From NCBI GenBank assembly GCA_964433415.1, contig CAYSQM010000006.1, positions 2,755 to 66,754 on the forward strand: a stretch of DNA of 64,000 nucleotides, given 5' to 3'. A model generated the notes under the pieces. The model had not been told where the DNA came from and searched no databases. It was given only the letters and a program-made list of their open reading frames with translations. This DNA comes from an uncultured Pseudomonadota bacterium (GTDB lineage Bacteria; Babelota; Babeliae; Babelales; CAIQNR01). Of the stretch, positions 9,319 through 44,647 are shown in pieces. How positions within the stretch are numbered: position 1 is the first letter of the stretch; every line of letters starts with the position of its first letter. The translations under genes were made by a program, and so were the position numbers.

Positions 9319-10287
9319 ATGGATTATGGCACAGTTTTTTTTCACTATGGCACCATTGCAATTATTGTAGCAGTTAACGCTATAGGAGCTGGGATTGGTG
9401 GAGGACTTATTAGCAATGCTGCATTAAATGCTCTTGATCAACAACCAAATGCTCACGATTCTATAGGTCAAATATCATTTTTAGGAATTGCACTCATTGA
9501 AACTGCAAGCATTATTAGTCTTACTATGGCATTTTTATTATTGTCACGCCATGTACATTTAGAAAATCAATTTTTTAGTCATTTAAGTGAAATCGGCATT
9601 TTATTTTCTCTTGGCATTACTGGACTAATTACAGGAATAGCTTCAGCAATGCCTGCACGTGCTGCTTGCTATTCAACTGCCCGCCAACCATTCTCTAGCC
9701 AAAAAATTCGTGTCTTAATGCTTCTTACTCAATCACTTATGCAGACACCAGTTATTTTAAGTTTTATTATAGCATTACTTATCAACTATCAAATTCCTTA
9801 TGCTTCCTCACTAGGTGATGCCTTACGCCTTATTGCTAGTGGTTTATGTATTGGTATTGCAAGCATTGGCCCATCTTATGGACTTGCAATCTTTTCTGAA
9901 CAAGTCTGCAAGGGCATAGGTATTAATCGTAATGCCTATAGTTCATTACTTTCATCTACTCCTATTAATGCTGCTATTATTGAATCACCTATTATCTTTT
10001 CATTGCTCGTTTCATTTTTAATACTTCGCACATCTTCAACAGTCAATGATCCTTTATTTTTAGGGCTTACCTGCATAGCTGCTGCATTATGTATGGGACT
10101 ATCTACTCTTGGAACAGGAATTAGTTCTGGAAAAATAGCCGCAAGCGCTTCAAAACAAATTGCTCTTTCTCCTCATTACGCATCACTTCTTTCAAAAAGT
10201 AGTTTATTTGCTCAAGCACTTATTGAAACAAGTGCAATTTATGGATTAGTTATTGCACTATTTTTAATTACTACTAATCTGACATAA
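9319..10287 (+). CDS. atpE: fused F0 c-subunit: four proteolipid hairpins in one 322-aa polypeptide
   Basis: Four tandem units, each with a Gly/Ala-rich helix, a polar loop (DQQP, ARQP, INRN, LSPH) and a helix with the carboxylate position (IETAS, MQTPV, IESPI, IETSA). Confidence 0.7.
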   Translation: MDYGTVFFHYGTIAIIVAVNAIGAGIGGGLISNAALNALDQQPNAHDSIGQISFLGIALIETASIISLTMAFLLLSRHVHLENQFFSHLSEIGILFSLGITGLITGIASAMPARAACYSTARQPFSSQKIRVLMLLTQSLMQTPVILSFIIALLINYQIPYASSLGDALRLIASGLCIGIASIGPSYGLAIFSEQVCKGIGINRNAYSSLLSSTPINAAIIESPIIFSLLVSFLILRTSSTVNDPLFLGLTCIAAALCMGLSTLGTGISSGKIAASASKQIALSPHYASLLSKSSLFAQALIETSAIYGLVIALFLITTNLT

Positions 10288-14808: not shown

Positions 14809-15830
14809 ATAAAATTATTTGCTGTGTCGCTGGACGATCTGGTGGACATATCATTCCTTGCCTTATGTATGCAGAATATTTAAAAAAAGATTCTACCCAT
14901 TCTGAGATCTTATTTTTTAGTACCAATGGAGCACTTGATGCTTCTATTATAAAAAATTTCCCTTCAATTACTGATCATATTGGTTTACCTCTTACTGGGA
15001 TACCCAGCAAAAAAAGTATTTTTTCTTATTTAAAATTTATCAAACAATTAATAAGTACAACATTAAAAACTATCTATTGGCTTATACTAAAAAGACCTGC
15101 ACTCATTGTAAGCACTGGTGGCTATATTGCAGTACCTGTCTGTATAATTGGATTTTTATTACGAATTCGCATAGAACTTTTTGAATTAAATGCAGTCCCT
15201 GGCAAAGCCACACTTTTTCTTGCCCGTTATGCATCAATTATTCATACATGCTTCCCAGAAGCAGAAAAAAGTTTTCACCACTACAAAACCGATCTCATTA
15301 AATACCCAATACGATTTAATCATAAAAAATTATTATCAAGAGATGCCGCTCTTAAAAATTTAGGATTTTGCTCTGAAAAAATGACAATCCTCATTCTTGG
15401 CGGGTCGCAAGGATCTCTTTTTATTAATAATATTATGAAAAAAGCATGCATCCTTAATAAAACATTATTTTCATCAATTCAAATTATTCATCAAACAGGT
15501 GATCGTTCTACCGAAATTAAAGACTTCTATACAAAAAAAGAGATTACCAGTTGCGTCTTTCCCTACATTTCTCATATAGAACAATTTTACCCAGCAGCTG
15601 ATTTAATTATTTGTCGTGCTGGTGCAGGAACCCTTTTTGAAACGCTTTTTTTCAAAAAACCAGCAATTATTATTCCTCTTGAAACAGCTGAAACAAACCA
15701 TCAACTTGACAATGCCCTTTCTATGCAGAATCAATATCCAACTTTTTTTTCTGTATTACGCCAACAAGAACTATTCGATGACATAACACCATTTATCCAA
15801 TTGGTACAACAGCTGATGGAGCCCAAGTAG
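14805..15830 (+). CDS. murG: UDP-GlcNAc:lipid I N-acetylglucosaminyltransferase
   Basis: AGRSGGHIIPCL, LGGSQGS, ICRAGAGTLFE and ETNHQLDNA. Confidence 0.85.
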   Translation: MNKIICCVAGRSGGHIIPCLMYAEYLKKDSTHSEILFFSTNGALDASIIKNFPSITDHIGLPLTGIPSKKSIFSYLKFIKQLISTTLKTIYWLILKRPALIVSTGGYIAVPVCIIGFLLRIRIELFELNAVPGKATLFLARYASIIHTCFPEAEKSFHHYKTDLIKYPIRFNHKKLLSRDAALKNLGFCSEKMTILILGGSQGSLFINNIMKKACILNKTLFSSIQIIHQTGDRSTEIKDFYTKKEITSCVFPYISHIEQFYPAADLIICRAGAGTLFETLFFKKPAIIIPLETAETNHQLDNALSMQNQYPTFFSVLRQQELFDDITPFIQLVQQLMEPK

Positions 15831-18117
15831 ATACAGATACTGGACATGTTTGCCCTACTGGACAGTTTGGATTGTTAGCATTATTGGTTACAATTTCACC
15901 ATTACTTGATTCATACATAGTAGGCGAACTTGTTCCTGAAAATACATAATCATTAGTCCCTGCCATCCAAAAAATTAATGGATCAGTAATACTACCCGGA
16001 CCATTTACTATACGTTGCACTATACTCTGACCAAAAGTATTAAAGTTAGTGGTATAAGTTACCGGATTAGTACTAGGAGAAACAGGCATGAAAATATTAT
16101 TAATCCCAATACCAGAACCTTGAAGGTAACTACTTACTGAAGCTAAAGCAACCGATTGCGGTGTTGCCGGAGAACTCAATGGAGTAGGCGGATTTAAAGC
16201 AGCTGAAACCCATAATTGAACATTGTTCATTAAAGTTGCATAACCAGGATTTGTTCCATCGGCAGCAGTAGCAAATACTGAATTATTCACACAACTTCCT
16301 ACCATTTGAAGAGGCAATTCAAAGCATGCTTGTGGTGGATAAATAGTATAGTAGAAAGGACCAGAACTCCCTTCATAAGAAGAAAAAACATCTGAGGCAA
16401 GTAATATTCCGGTTACGCCAGAATCAGGATCGGTTAAATAAGTAAGATTATTAGTTAATGGCTGAGATAACAAAGAAGATTGCTGAGCGTAACTCATTGT
16501 TGGCACTGTTGCTGGCGGAGTTGGTGGAATAAAAGGAATAAATTTAATTTTTTCTGACGCAAGATTTCTTAAAAATTGCTGTGCAGTAGTTGGATTAGTA
16601 GTATCTAAAGAAACAATTGATAAACGAGCTGCAGAAATTAAAGAAGTCGTTAAAGGCATTATAGTAGATGGAGTAGTAGTGGGCGCTGGAATAGTACATA
16701 ATGCTGCTTCTGCTGGACTCAACGTACATTTATAATTTAATGGTGGACGTATAAAAGAAAATGAAACTGCTTGTCCTGTAGGAATTTGACCTAATACAAC
16801 ACCATCTGGCGATGAAGCTGTAAGCCATCCTGGTGCATAATAAATAAACCAAAGTGACCGATTAACTGGATCAAAAGATACAAAAGGAGCGCCTGTTGCA
16901 CTACCCGTTGATCCTGATGTTGAAACTTCAGTTGTAGCATTACCAATAATACCACCTTGTGCAGCCAATTGTGCCACATATTGTGCTGCAGATTGATTCC
17001 AAATAAAACAACGCACAGGAGAAAGATCTCGTGTTTGTTTAGAAACAGGGATTATTGACCAAGCACCAGCACTGCCACTACTTGTTGATGCAACCAAATA
17101 ATTACCTGGATTAAACCCTGTTTGTATAACTTCAAGTACTGGAGAAGTAGCGTTGTTACTAATAATTTCATAGTTACAGCGCATTGCGCCATTACCTACA
17201 GAATTAGTTACCACTGCATTTGCTGTACTGCTCCAAGATGCTGTGGCAAGTCCTTGCGGATTAAGATAAACAGTATTTTGAGTAGTTGACATTGGCAATG
17301 TCCCCGCACTACTAAAGACTAAAGTAGAAACACCAGTTGCTAAACGAAATGCATGAGTAGAATCACTAGTCAAAAAATTAAAACTATTAGGATCTAAAGT
17401 AACTGTGTACTTTTTTATTGGTGTACCAATTGGCGCAGTAGGATCTGAACAAGAAAAAACAATAGTATTTTGTTGATTAACACCATTATAAATAAGAGCA
17501 TTAAAGTCACTAGTAAACCCAACATAAGAACCATTAGAAGCAGGATTACTGGCAGTATTAGCATTAGGACCACTTTGTCCAATTTTTTCAACAGCAGGCC
17601 CTACCACTTGCCTTACACCTGATAAAGTATCAACTTTTGTATAAACATTATAATAAAAAGTAGGATTACTTAGTCCATTAGTAGCATCAGCGTAAGTAGG
17701 CATAGCATTAACTAAATCATCTGTAAAAGAACCCTTACCATTACCAAAACCAATCTCAACTTCAAGATAAAGTCCAATATTAGAAAAATTAGATCCTGTA
17801 CTTTGACCTGGCAAAAGAGCAGAAACTGTGGAACCTGATGTCCCGCTTCCTTCAAAAACAACCCCCTGAATCTTATCAAGATCATTGCACTGTACACTCA
17901 CCGTATCAGCAATAGTATTATTAAAGACTTCAAAAGAATAATGATACCCAGGAGGAGACATTCCAAAACTTTGAGCCATTCCTTCGCCAAAATTTTTAAA
18001 ACCATTTCCTATCCCACTCATAGTACTGGTAAAACTTGATAAGCTACTGCTAAAACTACTTTTCAATTCACTATTAAAAATGAATAATAATAAAAATATA
18101 TATATACACTTCCACAT
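15793..18117 (-). CDS. large secreted Ser/Thr/Asn/Pro/Gly-rich, nearly uncharged protein (surface protein candidate)
   Basis: ATG at 18117 (MWKCIYIFLLLFIFNS signal peptide) is preceded by GGGGAG at a 7-nt spacing. 775 aa with very few K/E/D/R, unlike the neighbouring genes. Confidence 0.6.
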   Translation of the reverse strand: MWKCIYIFLLLFIFNSELKSSFSSSLSSFTSTMSGIGNGFKNFGEGMAQSFGMSPPGYHYSFEVFNNTIADTVSVQCNDLDKIQGVVFEGSGTSGSTVSALLPGQSTGSNFSNIGLYLEVEIGFGNGKGSFTDDLVNAMPTYADATNGLSNPTFYYNVYTKVDTLSGVRQVVGPAVEKIGQSGPNANTASNPASNGSYVGFTSDFNALIYNGVNQQNTIVFSCSDPTAPIGTPIKKYTVTLDPNSFNFLTSDSTHAFRLATGVSTLVFSSAGTLPMSTTQNTVYLNPQGLATASWSSTANAVVTNSVGNGAMRCNYEIISNNATSPVLEVIQTGFNPGNYLVASTSSGSAGAWSIIPVSKQTRDLSPVRCFIWNQSAAQYVAQLAAQGGIIGNATTEVSTSGSTGSATGAPFVSFDPVNRSLWFIYYAPGWLTASSPDGVVLGQIPTGQAVSFSFIRPPLNYKCTLSPAEAALCTIPAPTTTPSTIMPLTTSLISAARLSIVSLDTTNPTTAQQFLRNLASEKIKFIPFIPPTPPATVPTMSYAQQSSLLSQPLTNNLTYLTDPDSGVTGILLASDVFSSYEGSSGPFYYTIYPPQACFELPLQMVGSCVNNSVFATAADGTNPGYATLMNNVQLWVSAALNPPTPLSSPATPQSVALASVSSYLQGSGIGINNIFMPVSPSTNPVTYTTNFNTFGQSIVQRIVNGPGSITDPLIFWMAGTNDYVFSGTSSPTMYESSNGEIVTNNANNPNCPVGQTCPVSVSTWAPSAVVPIG

Positions 18118-18202
18118 AAAAAGCTCCCCGCTATACACCATTAACTTATTTTTTTGTTTTACTCTAATAAAAGAATAAGTGTCAAGCACTCACAAGATAA
18201 AG

Positions 18203-28551: not shown

Positions 28552-29229
28552 TTAAAGAGCAAGAGCATGTTTTGTCTTCTCGCGTTTTAATATTTTTATC
28601 ATGTTTTCATCTAAAGGATTATGCCCAACATCTAAAGCAAAGCCAGAACAACTTTCAAGAAAAATAATAGAAAAAGTTTTTAATTTATTAAATCTATAAT
28701 TTAATTCTTTCAAATATCTTAATCTTATTATTTCTTCTTCATCTAAAGTCTCTAGTTGATTATATTTTAAATCAAGCTTAACCAATTTAGATATATCTCC
28801 AATCCGATGTAACCCTTTAATAGACGTTAATGATAACTTAGAAAAATCTAAAATAGATACATCTTCTGTATAAAAAATCTCATCATCTTCTGTTTCATCA
28901 TCTGATAATTCGTCAGCTTTTCTTAAACAACGAATACAAGAACGCAAAAAAATATTTGTACCAGATGCTTCAAGAAGATCATTAATTGATAAAGAATAAG
29001 AACAAGTACCATTTCTAAGCAATAGTGCTAACTCAGGATTTTGTGCTTTAAATTCTTGTAATGGTTCTTTTCTTTTATGCGGATATTTTTTTAATTGAAT
29101 TAATGCTAAACGCAGCATCTCTTTATTTATAAAACAATCTAGCGATAAAGTTTGTTCATCAAAATTTTGTTGAGCAGAATATGCACTACTTACAAAAAAC
29201 AAAAAACCTAATATTATTAATATTCTCAT
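28552..29229 (-). CDS. secreted leucine-rich-repeat protein (paralog of the 37-39 kb pair, without their C-terminal tail)
   Basis: Signal peptide MRILIILGFLFFVSSAYS. EMLRLALIQLKK and YSLSINDLLEA modules are shared with the other LRR proteins. LRRs include LVKLDLKYNQLETL and LKELNYRFNKLKTF. Confidence 0.65.
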   Translation of the reverse strand: MRILIILGFLFFVSSAYSAQQNFDEQTLSLDCFINKEMLRLALIQLKKYPHKRKEPLQEFKAQNPELALLLRNGTCSYSLSINDLLEASGTNIFLRSCIRCLRKADELSDDETEDDEIFYTEDVSILDFSKLSLTSIKGLHRIGDISKLVKLDLKYNQLETLDEEEIIRLRYLKELNYRFNKLKTFSIIFLESCSGFALDVGHNPLDENMIKILKREKTKHALAL

Positions 29230-29334
29230 AATCTTTCTTTCATTATCTTTTACCATTTTTTAAATACTAAGCACTGATTAAATAATTTACAAGCAACACC
29301 AAGCCCCTTTGACAACCTATTAACCAATGAACTT

Positions 29335-35287: not shown

Positions 35288-36532
35288 TTAAAAATTCAAC
35301 GTAAATCCAAGAGATATGCGTTGTGTTTTACTTACATTTTTTGGCTTTAAAATTTTAACTGGTATATCCCATGAAAAAGTAATAATCGGTTGAATAGATT
35401 TTTCTTTAACCGAAGGAGTCATATCATAAAAAATATTGAACAAAAGATATTCTGTTTTCCATTTACTTTGTTCATACATCTGGGAATAAGTAATAGGGAT
35501 AGTTTTATCTAAACGAACATCTTGCCACACATCTCCACCACGAAACCCATATAAATATTGCAATTGAGCACCAAAGCCATCTTGCAAATCTTCAAATCGT
35601 ACTGTAGGCGAAATAACCACTGTTAAACCAGAACTCACTTCCATATTACCAGTAGTTGCGCCAAAAATAACCGGTTCACCAAGGACTGAAATACGTTTGT
35701 TTTGAGTTTTTTCTAAACGCTTATTCATACGAACTAGCAAAGCAAACCACCAATCTTCTTTAAGTTCTAAAGAAAAATCAGCTCCCATTAAAAATCCAAA
35801 ATGTTTATTACCATCAAAGGGAATTGAAGCACAATTATCTTCATCACGAGCAGGGCTTGTAGGGAATAAAATTCCTGAGCTAATACCAAAATCTGCTTTT
35901 CGTGATTTTAAAACATATTCACCAGTCCATCCACAACGTCCATAAATTTCAATATCTGTTAATCCTGACTGAGACCAACGATTTTCACTCAACCCAAGAG
36001 AAGTCAACATAGAACGCCTATTAGCATCTAATTCAAGTTCATCAGCTGCTGAAAGTCCAAGATCACGTTTAGTTTCTGTAGGTAATATAAAATTTAAATT
36101 AGAAGTAAGATGTAAAAAATTTCCAGACATACCTAATGAAAGAATTTTATTCACGGCAAATTCAGTTTCTAATGCAAGACCTTGTCCCTGAATTTTGCTC
36201 TGAGTATTCCACTTAATAGAATCAGCCAATTGCCATGCTGGTCTCAATGGATTAGGAAGACCAACTATAATTAAAGATCGGCCTAAAACTTTTTGATCAA
36301 ATTTTCCATAAAGTTCAGGGATACCTTTTTTCTTAATAGATTCATCACCATACGCACTATCGCCGGTAATAAAAAATCCTTCAGTTCTTAACCATGCTCT
36401 TTTTTCAACGCCCCTAAAAACAGGTCTTGGATTCCAAGGTAAAAATCTGTTATCAAAAGAAACAGAATACAAAGAATTTATTGATATAAAAGCTACCAAA
36501 CTAGTTAAAATAATTTTTTTTGTTTTTGTCAT
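35288..36532 (-). CDS. secreted protein, probable outer-membrane beta-barrel
   Basis: Signal peptide [23 protein letters not shown], alternating amphipathic strands and terminal ISLGFTLNF (C-terminal Phe). Confidence 0.45.
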
Positions 36533-36819
36533 CGCAATCACATCCATACTGTTCAAAAATAAGCATGACAACCTTCTCTAGAGAAGCTTATTGAGTATAT
36601 TATCTTAGTCAAGCTTATCTACAAAAAATTGTTTACTTATTTTAAGTTCACACTACACCTTTATTAACTTCATATGGACTACATTTTAATTTAATTATAA
36701 AATTAAGCACGTTTTAATTTTTAAATATAATTTAATATAAAAAAGATCGCCTTTAATTTCTTTCTAGACGATCTTTTAATAATTTATAAAATAATATAAT
36801 TATGTATTATTTTTACACC

Positions 36820-36840
36820 AAAAAGGCGCCTTAGGTCGCC
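36820..36840 (-). terminator. rho-independent terminator downstream of the LRR gene array
   Basis: Minus strand reads GGCGACC-TAA-GGCGCC (6 bp GC stem, 1-nt bulge) followed by TTTTT. Confidence 0.5.
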
Positions 36841-37006
36841 TGGCAAAAAATCACTATTCCTATTACCAATACTCCAAAGAATACTGCCACTACCAATGAG
36901 TGATTAAATCCAGAAAATAAAGCGTTTCTATTCTGATCAATCACTTTCATAGACTCATTCCAAAAGTTAATAGGCTCATTCTTATCATTTTTTTTCTTTT
37001 CATCAT
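36831..37006 (-). pseudogene. decayed remnant of a third LRR-family gene (start region plus tail-like ORF)
   Basis: The identical RBS/ATGATGAAAAGAAAAAAAATGATA start of the gene at 38114 reappears at 37006, but the frame stops after 19 codons (MMKRKKMIRMSLLTFGMSL*). A 39-codon ORF (36831-36950) encodes FSGFNHSLVVAVFFGVLVIGIVIF, reminiscent of the family tail FPVNHPLIAAATASAVLVAAAIV. Confidence 0.5.
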
Positions 37007-37210
37007 TTCTCCACTTAAAAAGTATTAATTTTATTATTTAATTTATTTACGAAATTACGCAACGATTACGCATTCCTTCTGCAGCACGACGCGCTTTTGC
37101 AGGATTTCTAGAAACTATCGCTGCCGCCACAAGAACTGCACTCGCTGTTGCTGCTGCTATTAAAGGATGATTTACAGGAAAAGATAAGACCCTTTCCATA
37201 AGAGATTCTG
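36982..37210. repeat. direct repeat copy A (229 bp; pairs with 38090-38318)
   Basis: Offset is 1108 bp. 36982-37190 is identical to 38090-38298, then 4 mismatches up to 37210. Covers a gene 5' start, a 40-bp spacer and the last ~51 codons of an LRR gene. Confidence 0.9.
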
Positions 37211-38114
37211 AAGGATTTAAACAAAGATAATAATTGTGATATTTAGGAAATTTTTTTAATAATCCTTGATATAATTCTTTATTGCATTCAAGTTGATTAC
37301 ATTTATAAAAATTCAAAATCACTAATTTTTCTAGAGCTAAAATTTCAGTTGCACAAAGTTTTAAAAGCTTTTCATTTTCACTAAGACACAAGTCTTGCAA
37401 AGAGTGATACAAACCTACAAATTGGTCCTTTTTTATTTCTTCCAATTCATTACGGCTAAGATTTAAACATGTCAATTTCGCTAAACCTGAAAATGCACCT
37501 TCATCAATTTTTTTAAGTTTATTACCGCGAAGATTTAAATGAGTCAATTGATTCAAGCCTATAAACATTTTTTTATTAATTTCTTCAAGACGGTTATCGC
37601 TAAGATTTAAGTGGCACAACGAAGAAAAATATTCAAAAAAATTGTTTGGTATTGTTTTCAATCTATTATTAGTCATCGACAAAACAACTAATGTAGTTAA
37701 GCCACAAAATTTATCCAGGCCACAAATTGAAGTCAAAAATAAATAATCCAATTCAAGCCAAGAGCGGTCTTCATAAATATTTGGTTGCATTCTCTCATTA
37801 AATTTATCAGAATTTTCATTAAAAACGTCTTCTAATGATATACATAGATCACCTTTAAATTTAGTAACTTCGCTCCCTAAAGGAGTATTCTTATATTCAT
37901 GCATGCTTCTTCCTTTATTCCCTTTATTCCCTTTTTTAAGTTCGTCTATAAGGAATTTTAGAATAACGGGTTCTGTCTTCTTTTCTGATATTGCTAATTG
38001 CTCCGCACTCTCTTCTGCTGACATTTGCTCTGCTGCAGTAACAAAGCCACAACTTAATAGACTCATTAAAAAAACAAACAATCCCATTTTTATCATTTTT
38101 TTTCTTTTCATCAT
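37047..38114 (-). CDS. secreted leucine-rich-repeat protein with hydrophobic/polybasic tail ending CVIS
   Basis: Signal peptide KMGLFVFLMSLLSCGFVTA. 24-residue LRRs include LCHLNLSDNRLEEI, LTHLNLRGNKLKKI and LTCLNLSRNELEEI. Tail is FPVNHPLIAAATASAVLVAAAIVSRNPAKARRAAEGMRNRCVIS. Confidence 0.8.
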   Translation of the reverse strand: MMKRKKMIKMGLFVFLMSLLSCGFVTAAEQMSAEESAEQLAISEKKTEPVILKFLIDELKKGNKGNKGRSMHEYKNTPLGSEVTKFKGDLCISLEDVFNENSDKFNERMQPNIYEDRSWLELDYLFLTSICGLDKFCGLTTLVVLSMTNNRLKTIPNNFFEYFSSLCHLNLSDNRLEEINKKMFIGLNQLTHLNLRGNKLKKIDEGAFSGLAKLTCLNLSRNELEEIKKDQFVGLYHSLQDLCLSENEKLLKLCATEILALEKLVILNFYKCNQLECNKELYQGLLKKFPKYHNYYLCLNPSESLMERVLSFPVNHPLIAAATASAVLVAAAIVSRNPAKARRAAEGMRNRCVIS

Positions 38115-38318
38115 TTCTCCACTTAAAAAGTATTAATTTTATTATTTAATTTATTTACGAAATTACGCAACGATTACGCATTCCTTCTGCAGCACGACGC
38201 GCTTTTGCAGGATTTCTAGAAACTATCGCTGCCGCCACAAGAACTGCACTCGCTGTTGCTGCTGCTATTAAAGGATGATTTACAGGAAAAGATAAGACTC
38301 TTTCCATAACAGATTCAG
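38090..38318. repeat. direct repeat copy B (pairs with 36982-37210)
   Basis: See copy A. Spans the 5' end of gene 37047-38114, the spacer and the 3' end of gene 38155-39357. Confidence 0.9.
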
Positions 38319-39357
38319 GTTGCTGCCCTTCGCTTATTGACAAAGAAAGATTAATTTCTTCTTTTTCTTCTTCTTCTTCTTCTTTTTCTTCTTCTTCATT
38401 ACTTAATTCATCATCGCTCGAAGGAGTACACGATGCTTCTTGATTAGGATCTAAACAAGAAAAACCAGTAGCCCAAAAATTTACTTTTTCCTTTAACTTT
38501 TCAAATAATTCACCATCACCTGCCAAAAGATTACCTTCAATATCTAATTTTTGTAGACCTTCAATGGATAAAATTTCTTCAGCACAAAGGGTCTTAAGTT
38601 GATTATCTGAAAGATTAAGCTGATATAGTTTATTATATAATCCTTCAAATTGGCCCTTTATTATTTGTTTCAATTTATTATGGCTAAGATCTAAATCATG
38701 CAATTTAGATGAACCTATAAACGTTTTTTGACCAATATTTTCAATCTTATTATAACTAAGATTTAAATCTCTCAAATTAATCAAACCTATAAGCATTTCT
38801 GCATTAATTTCTTTAAACTCATTATGACTAAGATCTAATTTTTTTAAATGCACACAGCCTTCAAAAAAACTCGGCTCTATTTTTTGCAATTTACTATGAG
38901 AAATATACAATTCATTTAAATATTTAAAATCAGAAAGACTATTTATGCCATCATAAGAAAGACTATTTATGCCATCAAGTGAAGTGAAAAATAAATGATT
39001 CAAATGAAGAGCTGAACGATATTGGTCATAACTGAATTTAGATATAATACCATTAAGATTAGGGTCTTCTTTAATCAAATCTTGTAGTGATAATGAATAA
39101 TTCTGAGGGTACAGTTCTTCACATTTTTTTTCTAATTTAGACTTTTCTTTAGACCAAAATTCACGGCCAACATACGCCACCGGGACAAAGCCTCTTACCC
39201 CATAATTTTTTTTCAATTCCACCATAGCTAATCTCAGAATTTCTTCTTTTTCTGATGATTGTGAGCAACTCTCTTCTTCTAACATTTGCTCTGCTGCAGT
39301 GACAATGCTACAGCTTAAAAAACTCATTAAAAAAACAAACAATCCCATTTTCACCAT
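38155..39357 (-). CDS. secreted leucine-rich-repeat protein, paralog with identical C-terminal tail ending CVIS
   Basis: Signal peptide MVKMGLFVFLMSFLSCSIVTA. LRRs include LKKLDLSHNEFKEI, LRDLNLSYNKIENI, LHDLDLSHNKLKQI and LYQLNLSDNQLKTL. Poly-Glu tract EEEKEEEEEEKEE; the last ~50 aa are identical to the neighbour. Confidence 0.8.
   Translation of the reverse strand: MVKMGLFVFLMSFLSCSIVTAAEQMLEEESCSQSSEKEEILRLAMVELKKNYGVRGFVPVAYVGREFWSKEKSKLEKKCEELYPQNYSLSLQDLIKEDPNLNGIISKFSYDQYRSALHLNHLFFTSLDGINSLSYDGINSLSDFKYLNELYISHSKLQKIEPSFFEGCVHLKKLDLSHNEFKEINAEMLIGLINLRDLNLSYNKIENIGQKTFIGSSKLHDLDLSHNKLKQIIKGQFEGLYNKLYQLNLSDNQLKTLCAEEILSIEGLQKLDIEGNLLAGDGELFEKLKEKVNFWATGFSCLDPNQEASCTPSSDDELSNEEEEKEEEEEEKEEINLSLSISEGQQPESVMERVLSFPVNHPLIAAATASAVLVAAAIVSRNPAKARRAAEGMRNRCVIS
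38932..38979. repeat. 24-bp in-frame tandem duplication inside the LRR gene
   Basis: AGAAAGACTATTTATGCCATCA occurs at 38932 and again at 38956, encoding DGINSLSYDGINSLSD. Confidence 0.85.
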
Positions 39358-39609
39358 TTTTTTCCTTATCTATCTATAAAAGCTAACTCATAATTAATAA
39401 CTGTAATTATAGAATATCAAAAATACCTACTTTGACAACCAAGGCTTATAGCATATATGGCAAGCTTATAAAGGACTAAAATAATAAAAATGCTCTGCCA
39501 TTATTTTTTATTTAAGCTTAAATAAAAAATGCTTGAACTAAATTGGGCAGAATAAAAAAACAATTTTCATAAAATATGTATATACTTAAAAGAAAACTAG
39601 GGATGACTT

Positions 39610-44173: not shown

Positions 44174-44647
44174 TTACTCAAGGCAATTACCATCATTACA
44201 ATCACTAAAAACTAATTTTAATCCACCAAAAAATAATGCTGCAGTAGCTGCTGAAGTTGCGGCAATTGCTGCTGCGCCATAACCAAGATATGACCACACA
44301 CTACCACCAGACTTTAAGCCATTCTTTTTTACATATTTCATTTTATAAAATTGTTTTTTAGATATTTCTGGATATTTATTAATTACTTGTTGTGTTGCCT
44401 TTTCAATAGAATCAACTGAAAATTCTGTCATATTTAATTGCGCATAAAAATCATTAGAAAAATTATCAATCATTACCTGATCAATATTATTATCCTTCAA
44501 TAATGATGCAATCTGACTAATAAGAGCATCTTTTGCCTGCGTAATTTGCTCTACAGTAAGACCAATACTACTTGCAACTAAAGTAGCATCAAGCCTTTGA
44601 CCTATAAAACCTACTATTAAGGCTAATACTAATAAATTTTTCTTCAT
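44174..44647 (-). CDS. hypothetical protein with signal peptide and C-terminal Ala/Gly-rich hydrophobic segment
   Basis: MKKNLLVLALIVGFIG signal peptide; C-terminal YLGYGAAAIAATSAATAALFFGGLKLVF, then DCNDGNCLE. Confidence 0.55.
   Translation of the reverse strand: MKKNLLVLALIVGFIGQRLDATLVASSIGLTVEQITQAKDALISQIASLLKDNNIDQVMIDNFSNDFYAQLNMTEFSVDSIEKATQQVINKYPEISKKQFYKMKYVKKNGLKSGGSVWSYLGYGAAAIAATSAATAALFFGGLKLVFSDCNDGNCLE

Follow-up and report, generated by a model that had tools for sequence, protein, structure and literature searches.

Two tandem leucine-rich repeat proteins of a Candidatus Dependentiae bacterium share a recently copied C-terminal tail that ends in a CaaX-type box

We describe two adjacent genes for leucine-rich repeat (LRR) proteins in a stretch of bacterial DNA of 64 kb (contig CAYSQM010000006.1; "the window" below means this whole stretch). 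Both are encoded on the minus strand: LRR2 at 38155..39357 (P0002, 400 amino acids, aa; Pfam LRR_8, E=5e-27) and LRR1 at 37047..38114 (355 aa; Pfam LRR_8, E=7e-25); the database version of LRR1, P0001, starts one Met later and has 354 aa. Their C-termini carry an identical 50-residue tail, the last four residues of which, C-V-I-S, have the form of the eukaryotic prenylation box Cys-aliphatic-aliphatic-X (CaaX). An earlier note on this DNA had reported the two open reading frames (ORFs) as tandem LRR proteins, had placed the tail at 37047-37199 and its twin at 38155-38307, and had pointed out the identical ending and its C-V-I-S. The Pfam matches and the translations confirm all of this, and the coordinates are exact. 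What the tail is for is a separate matter, to which the note had given two answers, a signal for lipidation by a eukaryotic host and, alternatively, a protein-sorting tag; both are weighed in the Discussion.

The LRR genes and their products

The N-termini of LRR1 and LRR2 are of Sec type and share the pattern MGLFVFLMS(L/F)LSC..VTAAEQ. Judged from sequence features, each has a K/R-rich start, a hydrophobic core of 10-15 residues and V-T-A|A-E. The signal peptide also contains a weak lipobox-like L-S-C, with which cleavage by signal peptidase I and by signal peptidase II would both be compatible. In LRR2 the signal peptide is followed by a poorly ordered N-terminal region, the LRRs, an acidic stalk (EEEEKEEEEEEKEE), a helix, a basic tail and CVIS; LRR1 has the same layout minus the acidic stalk. 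The AlphaFold2 model of LRR1 shows an LRR solenoid at residues ~120-290 (predicted local distance difference test, pLDDT, >90), disorder before it, a disordered linker after it (292-311), and two C-terminal helices, 316-335 (hydrophobic) and 337-353 (the basic tail).

The closest solved folds found for this model with Foldseek are extracellular "typical" LRR ectodomains: those of the Nogo receptor, LRRTM2, SALM, LINGO-1, chondroadherin, LGR4/5 and Leptospira LIC12234 (4tzh). The full-length protein search gave generic LRR similarity only; the best matches beyond the paralogues are animal LRR proteins, at 35-38% identity across 30-40% of the query. Similarly, the NCBIfam scan of the LRR proteins (E<=1) returned only partial LRR-family matches far under the family cut-offs (35 bits vs 1000). 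No LRRNT or LRRCT caps are found by Pfam, even at E<=10; a Cys-rich C-flank that looked like an LRRCT by eye was ruled out by the empty Pfam result at that threshold.

A distant paralogue, LRR3, is located at 28552..29256 (minus strand, 234 aa; Pfam LRR_8; BLASTP vs LRR2 E=2e-4). It has a signal peptide and shares with LRR2 an N-terminal module, "L(R/K)xxLxELKK ... YSLS(I/L)xDL"; the helix and the tail are both absent. LRR3 lies in another variable island, which lacks conservation in L058, the relative described below.

Two unrelated ORFs that belong to no recognised family, 4734-5909 and 44174-44647 (both on the minus strand), likewise start with a signal sequence and have one hydrophobic helix, at the C-terminus. 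The helix of the latter is Ala-rich (AAAIAATSAATAALFF) and similar in composition to that of the LRR tail. A signal sequence with a lone C-terminal helix seems to be a common layout in this genome.

The tail and the CVIS box

The tail, MERVLSFPVNHPLIAAATASAVLVAAAIVSRNPAKARRAAEGMRNRCVIS followed by a stop codon, is built as FPVNHP-LIAAATASAVLVAAAIV-SRNPAKARRAAEGMRNR-CVIS. Copy 1, at the end of LRR1, occupies 37047..37199 on the minus strand (exactly 50 codons and the stop). Its Ala-rich helix is encoded at 37113-37163 and is preceded by the juxtamembrane FPVNHP; the basic segment is at 37062-37112, CVIS at 37050-37061 and the stop codon at 37047-37049 (all on the minus strand). Copy 2, at the end of LRR2 (38155..38307, minus strand), is identical at the protein level and differs from copy 1 in one synonymous base (AGA/AGG, Arg).

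The Kyte-Doolittle mean of the helix is 2.09 for a 19-mer. On the Hessa scale, the 17-residue helix core sums to about -1 kcal/mol and is predicted to integrate. The 21 residues after the helix include 5 Arg, 1 Lys and 1 Glu (net charge +5). The basic patch of the earlier note, read there as K, R, R, R, R, is accordingly real, but the count is short by one Arg.

The farnesylation rule requires Cys-aliphatic-aliphatic-X, with X = Ser as in H-Ras CVLS. In both proteins the Cys sits exactly at -4 (...RNR-C-V-I-S-stop). By the rule as generally known, the Ser at X and the net positive AAEGMRNR upstream of the Cys fit a farnesyltransferase (FTase)-type X and a flexible non-acidic linker.

The GC content of the tail (45%, vs 29% in the gene body) suggested a foreign origin. 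This was rejected: GC content at third codon positions (GC3, 0.22) and codon adaptiveness are genome-typical, CGT is the preferred Arg codon of the genome, and the higher GC content is due to the Ala and Arg content of the tail.

Copying of the gene ends

The identity of the two tails continues beyond the codons. Positions 37190-36982 and 38298-38090 are identical at 209 of 209 nucleotides, in register at an offset of 1108 nt, and this stretch takes in the tail, the stop codon, a spacer of 40 nt in which the ribosome-binding site is GGAG, and the next ORF up to its eighth codon. The edges of the junction repeat, the copies of which lie at 36982..37210 and 38090..38318, are sharp: identity drops abruptly beyond the stretch. 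The 5' ends of the two genes are alike as well. A repeat at 39268..39370, which holds the ribosome-binding site and signal-peptide codons of LRR2, is 88% identical (103 nt) to 38007-38109 of LRR1, and the signal peptides agree at 20 of 23 residues. For the LRR middles, the corresponding values are about 73% DNA identity over the best-matching 204 nt and, for the proteins, about 30%.

Because synonymous and non-coding sites are identical too, recent gene conversion or unequal crossing-over is the explanation, not purifying selection on the peptide. Since the DNA identity extends past the coding sequence, the two tails count as one evolutionary event. The earlier note had drawn support from the fact that both proteins have the tail; with 209/209 nt identity that includes non-coding DNA, this argument collapses to a single event.

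Traces of a third copy, into which the repeat continues, are found downstream of LRR1. Its decayed 5' end (36947..37006, minus strand) is a 19-codon signal-peptide remnant, MMKRKKMIRMSLLTFGMSL with a stop codon. A mini-ORF in a different frame (36831..36950, minus strand) encodes 39 aa, MKVIDQNRNALFSGFNHSLVVAVFFGVLVIGIVIFCQAT with a stop codon. Its N-H-x-L motif and its strongly hydrophobic helix line up in register with the LRR tail, and it ends in C-Q-A-T straight after the helix, without a basic linker; the Cys is again at -4. The mini-ORF resembles the LRR tail only weakly: the local alignment of the two has a shuffle p of ~0.015, and the juxtamembrane 12-mer one of ~0.002. By these features the mini-ORF is plausibly the diverged tail of the decayed third copy and a remnant of an older tail variant. 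Homology of CQAT and CVIS across a 17-codon indel was also considered and is disfavoured by the DNA alignment.

The LRR2-LRR1-remnant unit is closed by a terminator-like hairpin with a T-run (36824..36841, minus strand). Upstream of LRR2 there is a promoter-like site, TTGTCA-16-TATTCT with TG (39411..39438, minus strand), which is a consensus match only; the number of promoter-like consensus sites equals the shuffle expectation. A structured RNA in the repeat was rejected, with an Rfam match that is only sub-threshold (E=0.49).

Chance occurrence of CaaX ends and searches for the tail

With the window's own composition as the chance model (Cys 1.4%, A/V/I/L/M 34%), a strict C-aliphatic-aliphatic-X end has a probability of 0.0016 per protein, which falls to 0.00034 when X must be of FTase type. 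The chance expectation is 0.08 CaaX ends per 51 window ORFs and ~1.5-2.5 per genome of 1000-1500 genes; among ORFs of unrelated bacterial loci the observed number is 0/698. Since the two copies are a single independent occurrence, CVIS alone is not significant at the genome scale. The CVIS motif is real, but an excess over chance is not demonstrable.

An exhaustive HMMER search with the 50-residue tail against 1.84 billion representative proteins returned only P0001, P0002 and a spurious repetitive protein, P0046. No orthologues of the tail proteins were found among these representatives, and the genes are absent from the relative L058. The tail is also absent from the genome, metagenome and viral contig scans. 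A word-indexed protein search with the tail alone was empty; it missed even the tail itself and is a weak negative. Six-frame translation of the window gave no further copy save the decayed mini-ORF, and Pfam at E<=10 gave nothing relevant for the tail segment.

Host genome, relatives and the island

By its RpoB, the window belongs to Candidatus Dependentiae (TM6; Babeliales): the named matches, at 67-69% identity, carry such names. Closer RpoB relatives are at 72-85% identity, with P0047 at 85%. One RpoB-matching metagenome-assembled genome is labelled Alteromonas naphthalenivorans, a label that looks wrong for that sequence. PyrG was tried as a taxonomic marker and abandoned in favour of RpoB: the genome-contig scan gave matches of 43-54% over many phyla, without synteny.

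All cultured Dependentiae are obligate intracellular parasites of protists (PMC6561590, PMC4776705), and a eukaryotic host with a farnesyltransferase is therefore plausible. The secretion reported for the phylum consists of Sec and a type II system, with no type III or type IV secretion system (T3SS, T4SS) (PMC4776705, PMC6561590). Its members carry many putative effectors with signal peptides, for which exit by type II secretion or in vesicles is possible (PMC6561590).

In the window the LRR unit has RsmA, MreB, an outer-membrane protein (OMP)-like protein, PyrG and Lon as neighbours. A close relative, L058 (ENA ERZ27265266, contig k141_513703, 38.5 kb), is collinear with the window at ~73-85% nucleotide identity. 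In it the OMP-like gene is directly adjacent to pyrG, and 36721-39554 of the window has no counterpart; by blastn, window position 36720 corresponds to 18765 of L058 and 39555 to 18773. This lineage-specific island of 2.83 kb (36721..39554) contains the entire LRR unit. The LRR genes are lineage-specific accessory genes. Their codon usage, GC3 and ribosome-binding sites are native and bacterial. No mobile-element end was recognised: the island has no tRNA close by, and neither a transposase nor an integrase was found. A second difference between the two genomes is the variable segment 25147-26552, which faces 8533-9179 of L058. The window has two ORFs there: one product has 256 aa, a signal peptide and a weak likeness to HAD proteins, the other has 181 aa and a poly-Asp/Glu stretch. 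In L058 there is only one ORF, of 172 aa.

An identical pyrG is present on three Logan contigs, L054-L056 (SRR13608705, SRR13608733, SRR13608714). One of them, L055 (SRR13608733), is an independent assembly in which codons 1-295 of LRR2 lie next to pyrG, with the same DNA sequence as in the window. The three contigs each stop within or beside the LRR genes, and we suspect that the ~230-nt junction repeat breaks the Logan assemblies. Tail-bearing genes of such a kind may be under-represented in short-read assemblies. For a run in the same accession range as the SRR13608705 group, soil is described (PMC12574318), which is a weak hint at the habitat.

Discussion

We favour, with about even confidence, the reading that LRR1 and LRR2 are membrane-anchored exported LRR proteins and that the CaaX form of their ends is fortuitous. 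On this reading, LRR2, LRR1 and the remains of the third copy would make up a small tandem unit, specific to its lineage, in the Dependentiae genome, and each intact gene would yield a Sec-exported single-pass (type I, bitopic) membrane protein. The sequence features agree with a type I bitopic LRR layout: signal peptide, LRR domain, one C-terminal helix and a positive tail. From the N-terminus on, a cleavable signal peptide would be followed by a poorly ordered segment and by six to seven "typical" LRRs of the extracellular type; then would come a flexible stalk, a transmembrane helix rich in Ala and a tail of 21 residues with charge +5. Under the positive-inside rule, this tail would act as a stop-transfer signal and remain in the bacterial cytoplasm, and the LRR domain would sit on the periplasmic side of the inner membrane. 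The helix and the basic stretch would be an ordinary membrane anchor, and CVIS would have its CaaX form by chance because the bacterial cytoplasm has no protein prenyltransferases. The cleavage of the signal peptide, the membrane topology and the unmodified Cys are what we infer from sequence. The tails would be identical through very recent copying of the ~230-nt gene-junction segment by gene conversion or unequal crossing-over; the same process would also homogenise the 5' ends with the signal peptides, as the ligand-binding LRR middles drift apart.

Partly comparable proteins are known from eukaryotes and from bacteria. Eukaryotic type I LRR proteins (LRRTM2, LINGO-1, SALMs; Nogo receptor for the ectodomain) are the best structural matches to LRR1, and the layout is common to them: signal peptide, ectodomain of 24-residue "typical" LRRs, stalk, helix and short basic cytoplasmic tail. 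However, the similarity is generic and the caps are missing, with no specific homology to a named eukaryotic LRR family; codon usage and ribosome-binding sites are native and bacterial, and there is no evidence for a recent transfer from a eukaryote. The Leptospira LIC12234 / LIC_11051 family and the internalins are likewise Sec-exported bacterial proteins with the same LRR subtype. They are lipoproteins, cell-wall-anchored (LPXTG) or secreted proteins and are not known to have a C-terminal helix as anchor. The locus is a new orphan case of the eukaryote-like LRR proteins of intracellular bacteria.

Several points weigh against a bacterial membrane anchor with a fortuitous box. A eukaryote-like LRR domain in the periplasm has no obvious partner or role there. 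The genes resemble fast-evolving host-interaction genes, with the island missing in the relative, the middles diverged and the ends conserved. A CVIS end behind a flexible basic linker is what textbooks give as a farnesylation signal, and eukaryotic cells are where the phylum lives. Hydrophobicity of the helix is no more than moderate, and its Hessa sum rises to about +2 kcal/mol once the flanking Pro and Ser are counted, so retention in the inner membrane, as predicted from sequence, is not certain. The weak lipobox-like L-S-C would leave the type of cleavage ambiguous. Finally, the Cys at -4 in the mini-ORF could hint that a terminal Cys matters.

Host prenylation is a reading that we regard as unlikely. 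It assumes that, once exported, the proteins arrive at a host membrane or in the host cytosol and that their C-terminus is accessible there; the host FTase would modify the Cys of CVIS. Rce1 and ICMT would process the end, and the farnesyl group with the polybasic stretch (a two-signal anchor as in K-Ras4B), possibly together with the helix, would fix the LRR module. The motif speaks for it: CVIS fits the CaaX rule, X is Ser and the linker ahead of it is basic and flexible. So does the RpoB placement among the Dependentiae/Babeliales, protist parasites with signal-peptide-bearing putative effectors (PMC6561590). The genes bear LRRs, are lineage-specific and fast-evolving, and lie in an island, as accessory host-interaction genes often do. 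The moderate hydrophobicity of the helix matches that of secreted transmembrane effectors of Legionella (PMC11602083), and the Cys at -4 recurs in the mini-ORF. A precedent exists in the Legionella Pel/AnkB effectors (PMC13081727, PMC5506055). On the other hand, the signal peptide, the helix and the positive tail together predict a CVIS that does not leave the bacterial cytoplasm and is not exposed to the host cytosol. The known CaaX effectors are injected by a T4SS or T3SS and are not known to have such a layout. For the phylum, an injection system is not on record (PMC4776705), and the 64-kb window has no T3SS or T4SS genes. A lipid anchor would be redundant beside a transmembrane helix. The two copies are one event, and one CaaX end per genome is about what chance gives. 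There are no orthologues that would show conservation of the Cys, the paralogue LRR3 is entirely without the tail, and the Cys of the mini-ORF abuts the helix, a poor context for an FTase substrate. For the host-lipidated effector of the earlier note, the motif, the LRR domains and the protist-parasite phylum stand in its favour, and the predicted topology and the missing injection system against it.

It is tempting to go further and to see in LRR1 and LRR2 the first CaaX-type host-lipidated effectors outside Proteobacteria, Sec-dependent and without a T3SS or T4SS; this we consider decidedly doubtful. Under the same reading the marginal helix, the polybasic stretch and a host-added farnesyl would act jointly, and the Cys at -4 in the third copy would be a trace of selection, a proposal that is equally hard to credit. 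Our literature search turned up no paper that links Dependentiae with CaaX.

The likeness to the prenylated Legionella effectors (Pel/CMP proteins, among them AnkB, an F-box/ankyrin effector) comprises the protist-parasite lifestyle, a eukaryote-like repeat domain and a C-terminal CaaX box. The Pels are not known to have a Sec signal peptide or a transmembrane helix before the box. LRR1 and LRR2 differ from them in having a Sec-type signal peptide and a helix just ahead of the box, in a phylum without a reported T3SS or T4SS. The Pels are substrates of Dot/Icm (a T4SS) and are delivered to the host cytosol (PMC13081727). The counts differ too: one independent CaaX occurrence here, judged from sequence, vs 7-11 different proteins per Legionella strain. 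The likeness to this class is limited to the last four residues and the lifestyle; in delivery and topology, the features that define the class, LRR1 and LRR2 fall outside it.

The alternative proposed in the earlier note, a sortase/exosortase-type tag, finds still less support, and we believe it to be improbable. Here FPVNHP or N-H-x-L, the helix and the basic cluster would be cleaved by a dedicated membrane enzyme after Sec export. The outcome, which we think no likelier, would be an LRR domain released or attached to the surface, as with GlyGly-CTERM/rhombosortase and type II secretion, or with PEP-CTERM/exosortase. The tripartite layout is present in outline, and the tail shares with LPXTG/sortase, PEP-CTERM/exosortase and GlyGly-CTERM/rhombosortase (linked to type II secretion) substrates a motif, a helix, basic residues and Sec export. 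Furthermore, N-H-x-L and the helix recur in register in the mini-ORF, where the basic stretch does not, and both targeting termini have been kept alike while the middles diverged. However, real sorting tags mark several unrelated proteins per genome, and known tags end in a few basic residues. The HMMER search finds this tail on two recent paralogues only, and the segment after the helix has 21 residues and ends in CVIS, unlike the known tags. No CTERM or sorting-signal model of NCBIfam fits the tail at E<=1. The identity at the nucleotide level reflects recent copying, not selection. As for the co-occurring sorting enzyme that the earlier note proposed to look for, no sortase, exosortase, rhomboid or CPBP protease was found among the scanned ORFs of the 64-kb window; for its polytopic membrane ORFs Pfam gave only Peptidase_A24 and Vut_1. 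The A24 prepilin peptidase is consistent with the type II/type IV pilus machinery of the phylum, and type II secretion in Dependentiae is in itself a point for a tag of this kind (PMC4776705).

Among the proteins found by the full-length search, P0003, an unrelated LRR protein, has an end (VPEPATMSLLALGGLALLRNRRKQ) that we take to be PEP-CTERM-like, a likeness recognised by eye alone.

A tail anchor for a host organelle is also a poor candidate. The Ala-rich helix and the basic segment would insert post-translationally and show the LRR domain on the organelle with no need for prenylation; the type, for which the chances appear just as slim, would be that of the mitochondrial outer membrane or the peroxisome. 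The helix is Ala-rich and moderately hydrophobic and is followed by R/K near the C-terminus, which may make the tail resemble Fis1- and OMP25-type signals. Chromulinavorax destructans, a member of the Dependentiae, remodels the host mitochondrion around its cell and relies on host ATP (PMC6561590). Against such an anchor, the LRR fold is of the extracellular type, the Sec signal peptide and the stop-transfer helix would rather keep the protein in the bacterium, an end of 21 residues and charge +5 is long for a translocated tail anchor, no delivery route is known, and the literature search returned no bacterial tail-anchored effectors with such properties.

Other features of the window

Three large proteins with signal peptides have no Pfam family. 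The product of 15793-18189 (minus strand) has 798 aa and is Ser/Thr/Pro-rich; those of 1906-3453 (plus strand) and 35288-36571 (minus strand), of 515 and 427 aa, look like outer-membrane proteins, and the 427-aa one is kept beside mreB in the relative.

The product of 9319-10287 (plus strand), an ATP synthase c subunit of 322 aa, consists of four ATP-synt_C domains fused together (Pfam E=6e-32, 4 stretches); its gene lies directly 3' of that for the a subunit (8522-9310). The c subunit is normally a single hairpin, and a fused tetra-hairpin would be unusual.

A "Lon fragment" in an eukaryote-like 170-kb contig (P0020/L057, ERZ25084387 ctg35622l, 10001-10141) was considered as a case of symbiont-to-host transfer and rejected. 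The peptide, of 46 aa, is the representative of a 90% cluster that includes the window's Lon; it is unrelated to Lon and has no blastn match, and is a clustering artefact.

Conclusions

Dependentiae are a widespread, almost uncultured phylum of protist parasites, and their host-manipulation proteins are essentially uncharacterised. Short eukaryotic C-terminal motifs call for caution in this setting: they arise by chance about once or twice per small genome. Lipidation of CVIS by the host is a long shot, not a discovery. If CVIS is used, the hijacking of prenylation would have arisen independently of Legionella and without an injection system, and the tail would give a handle on how Sec-exported proteins of Dependentiae get to host membranes. 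If CVIS is not used, which we judge likelier, the locus would present a lineage-specific LRR family in which gene conversion keeps the targeting ends, signal peptide and anchor, uniform as the binding surface changes.

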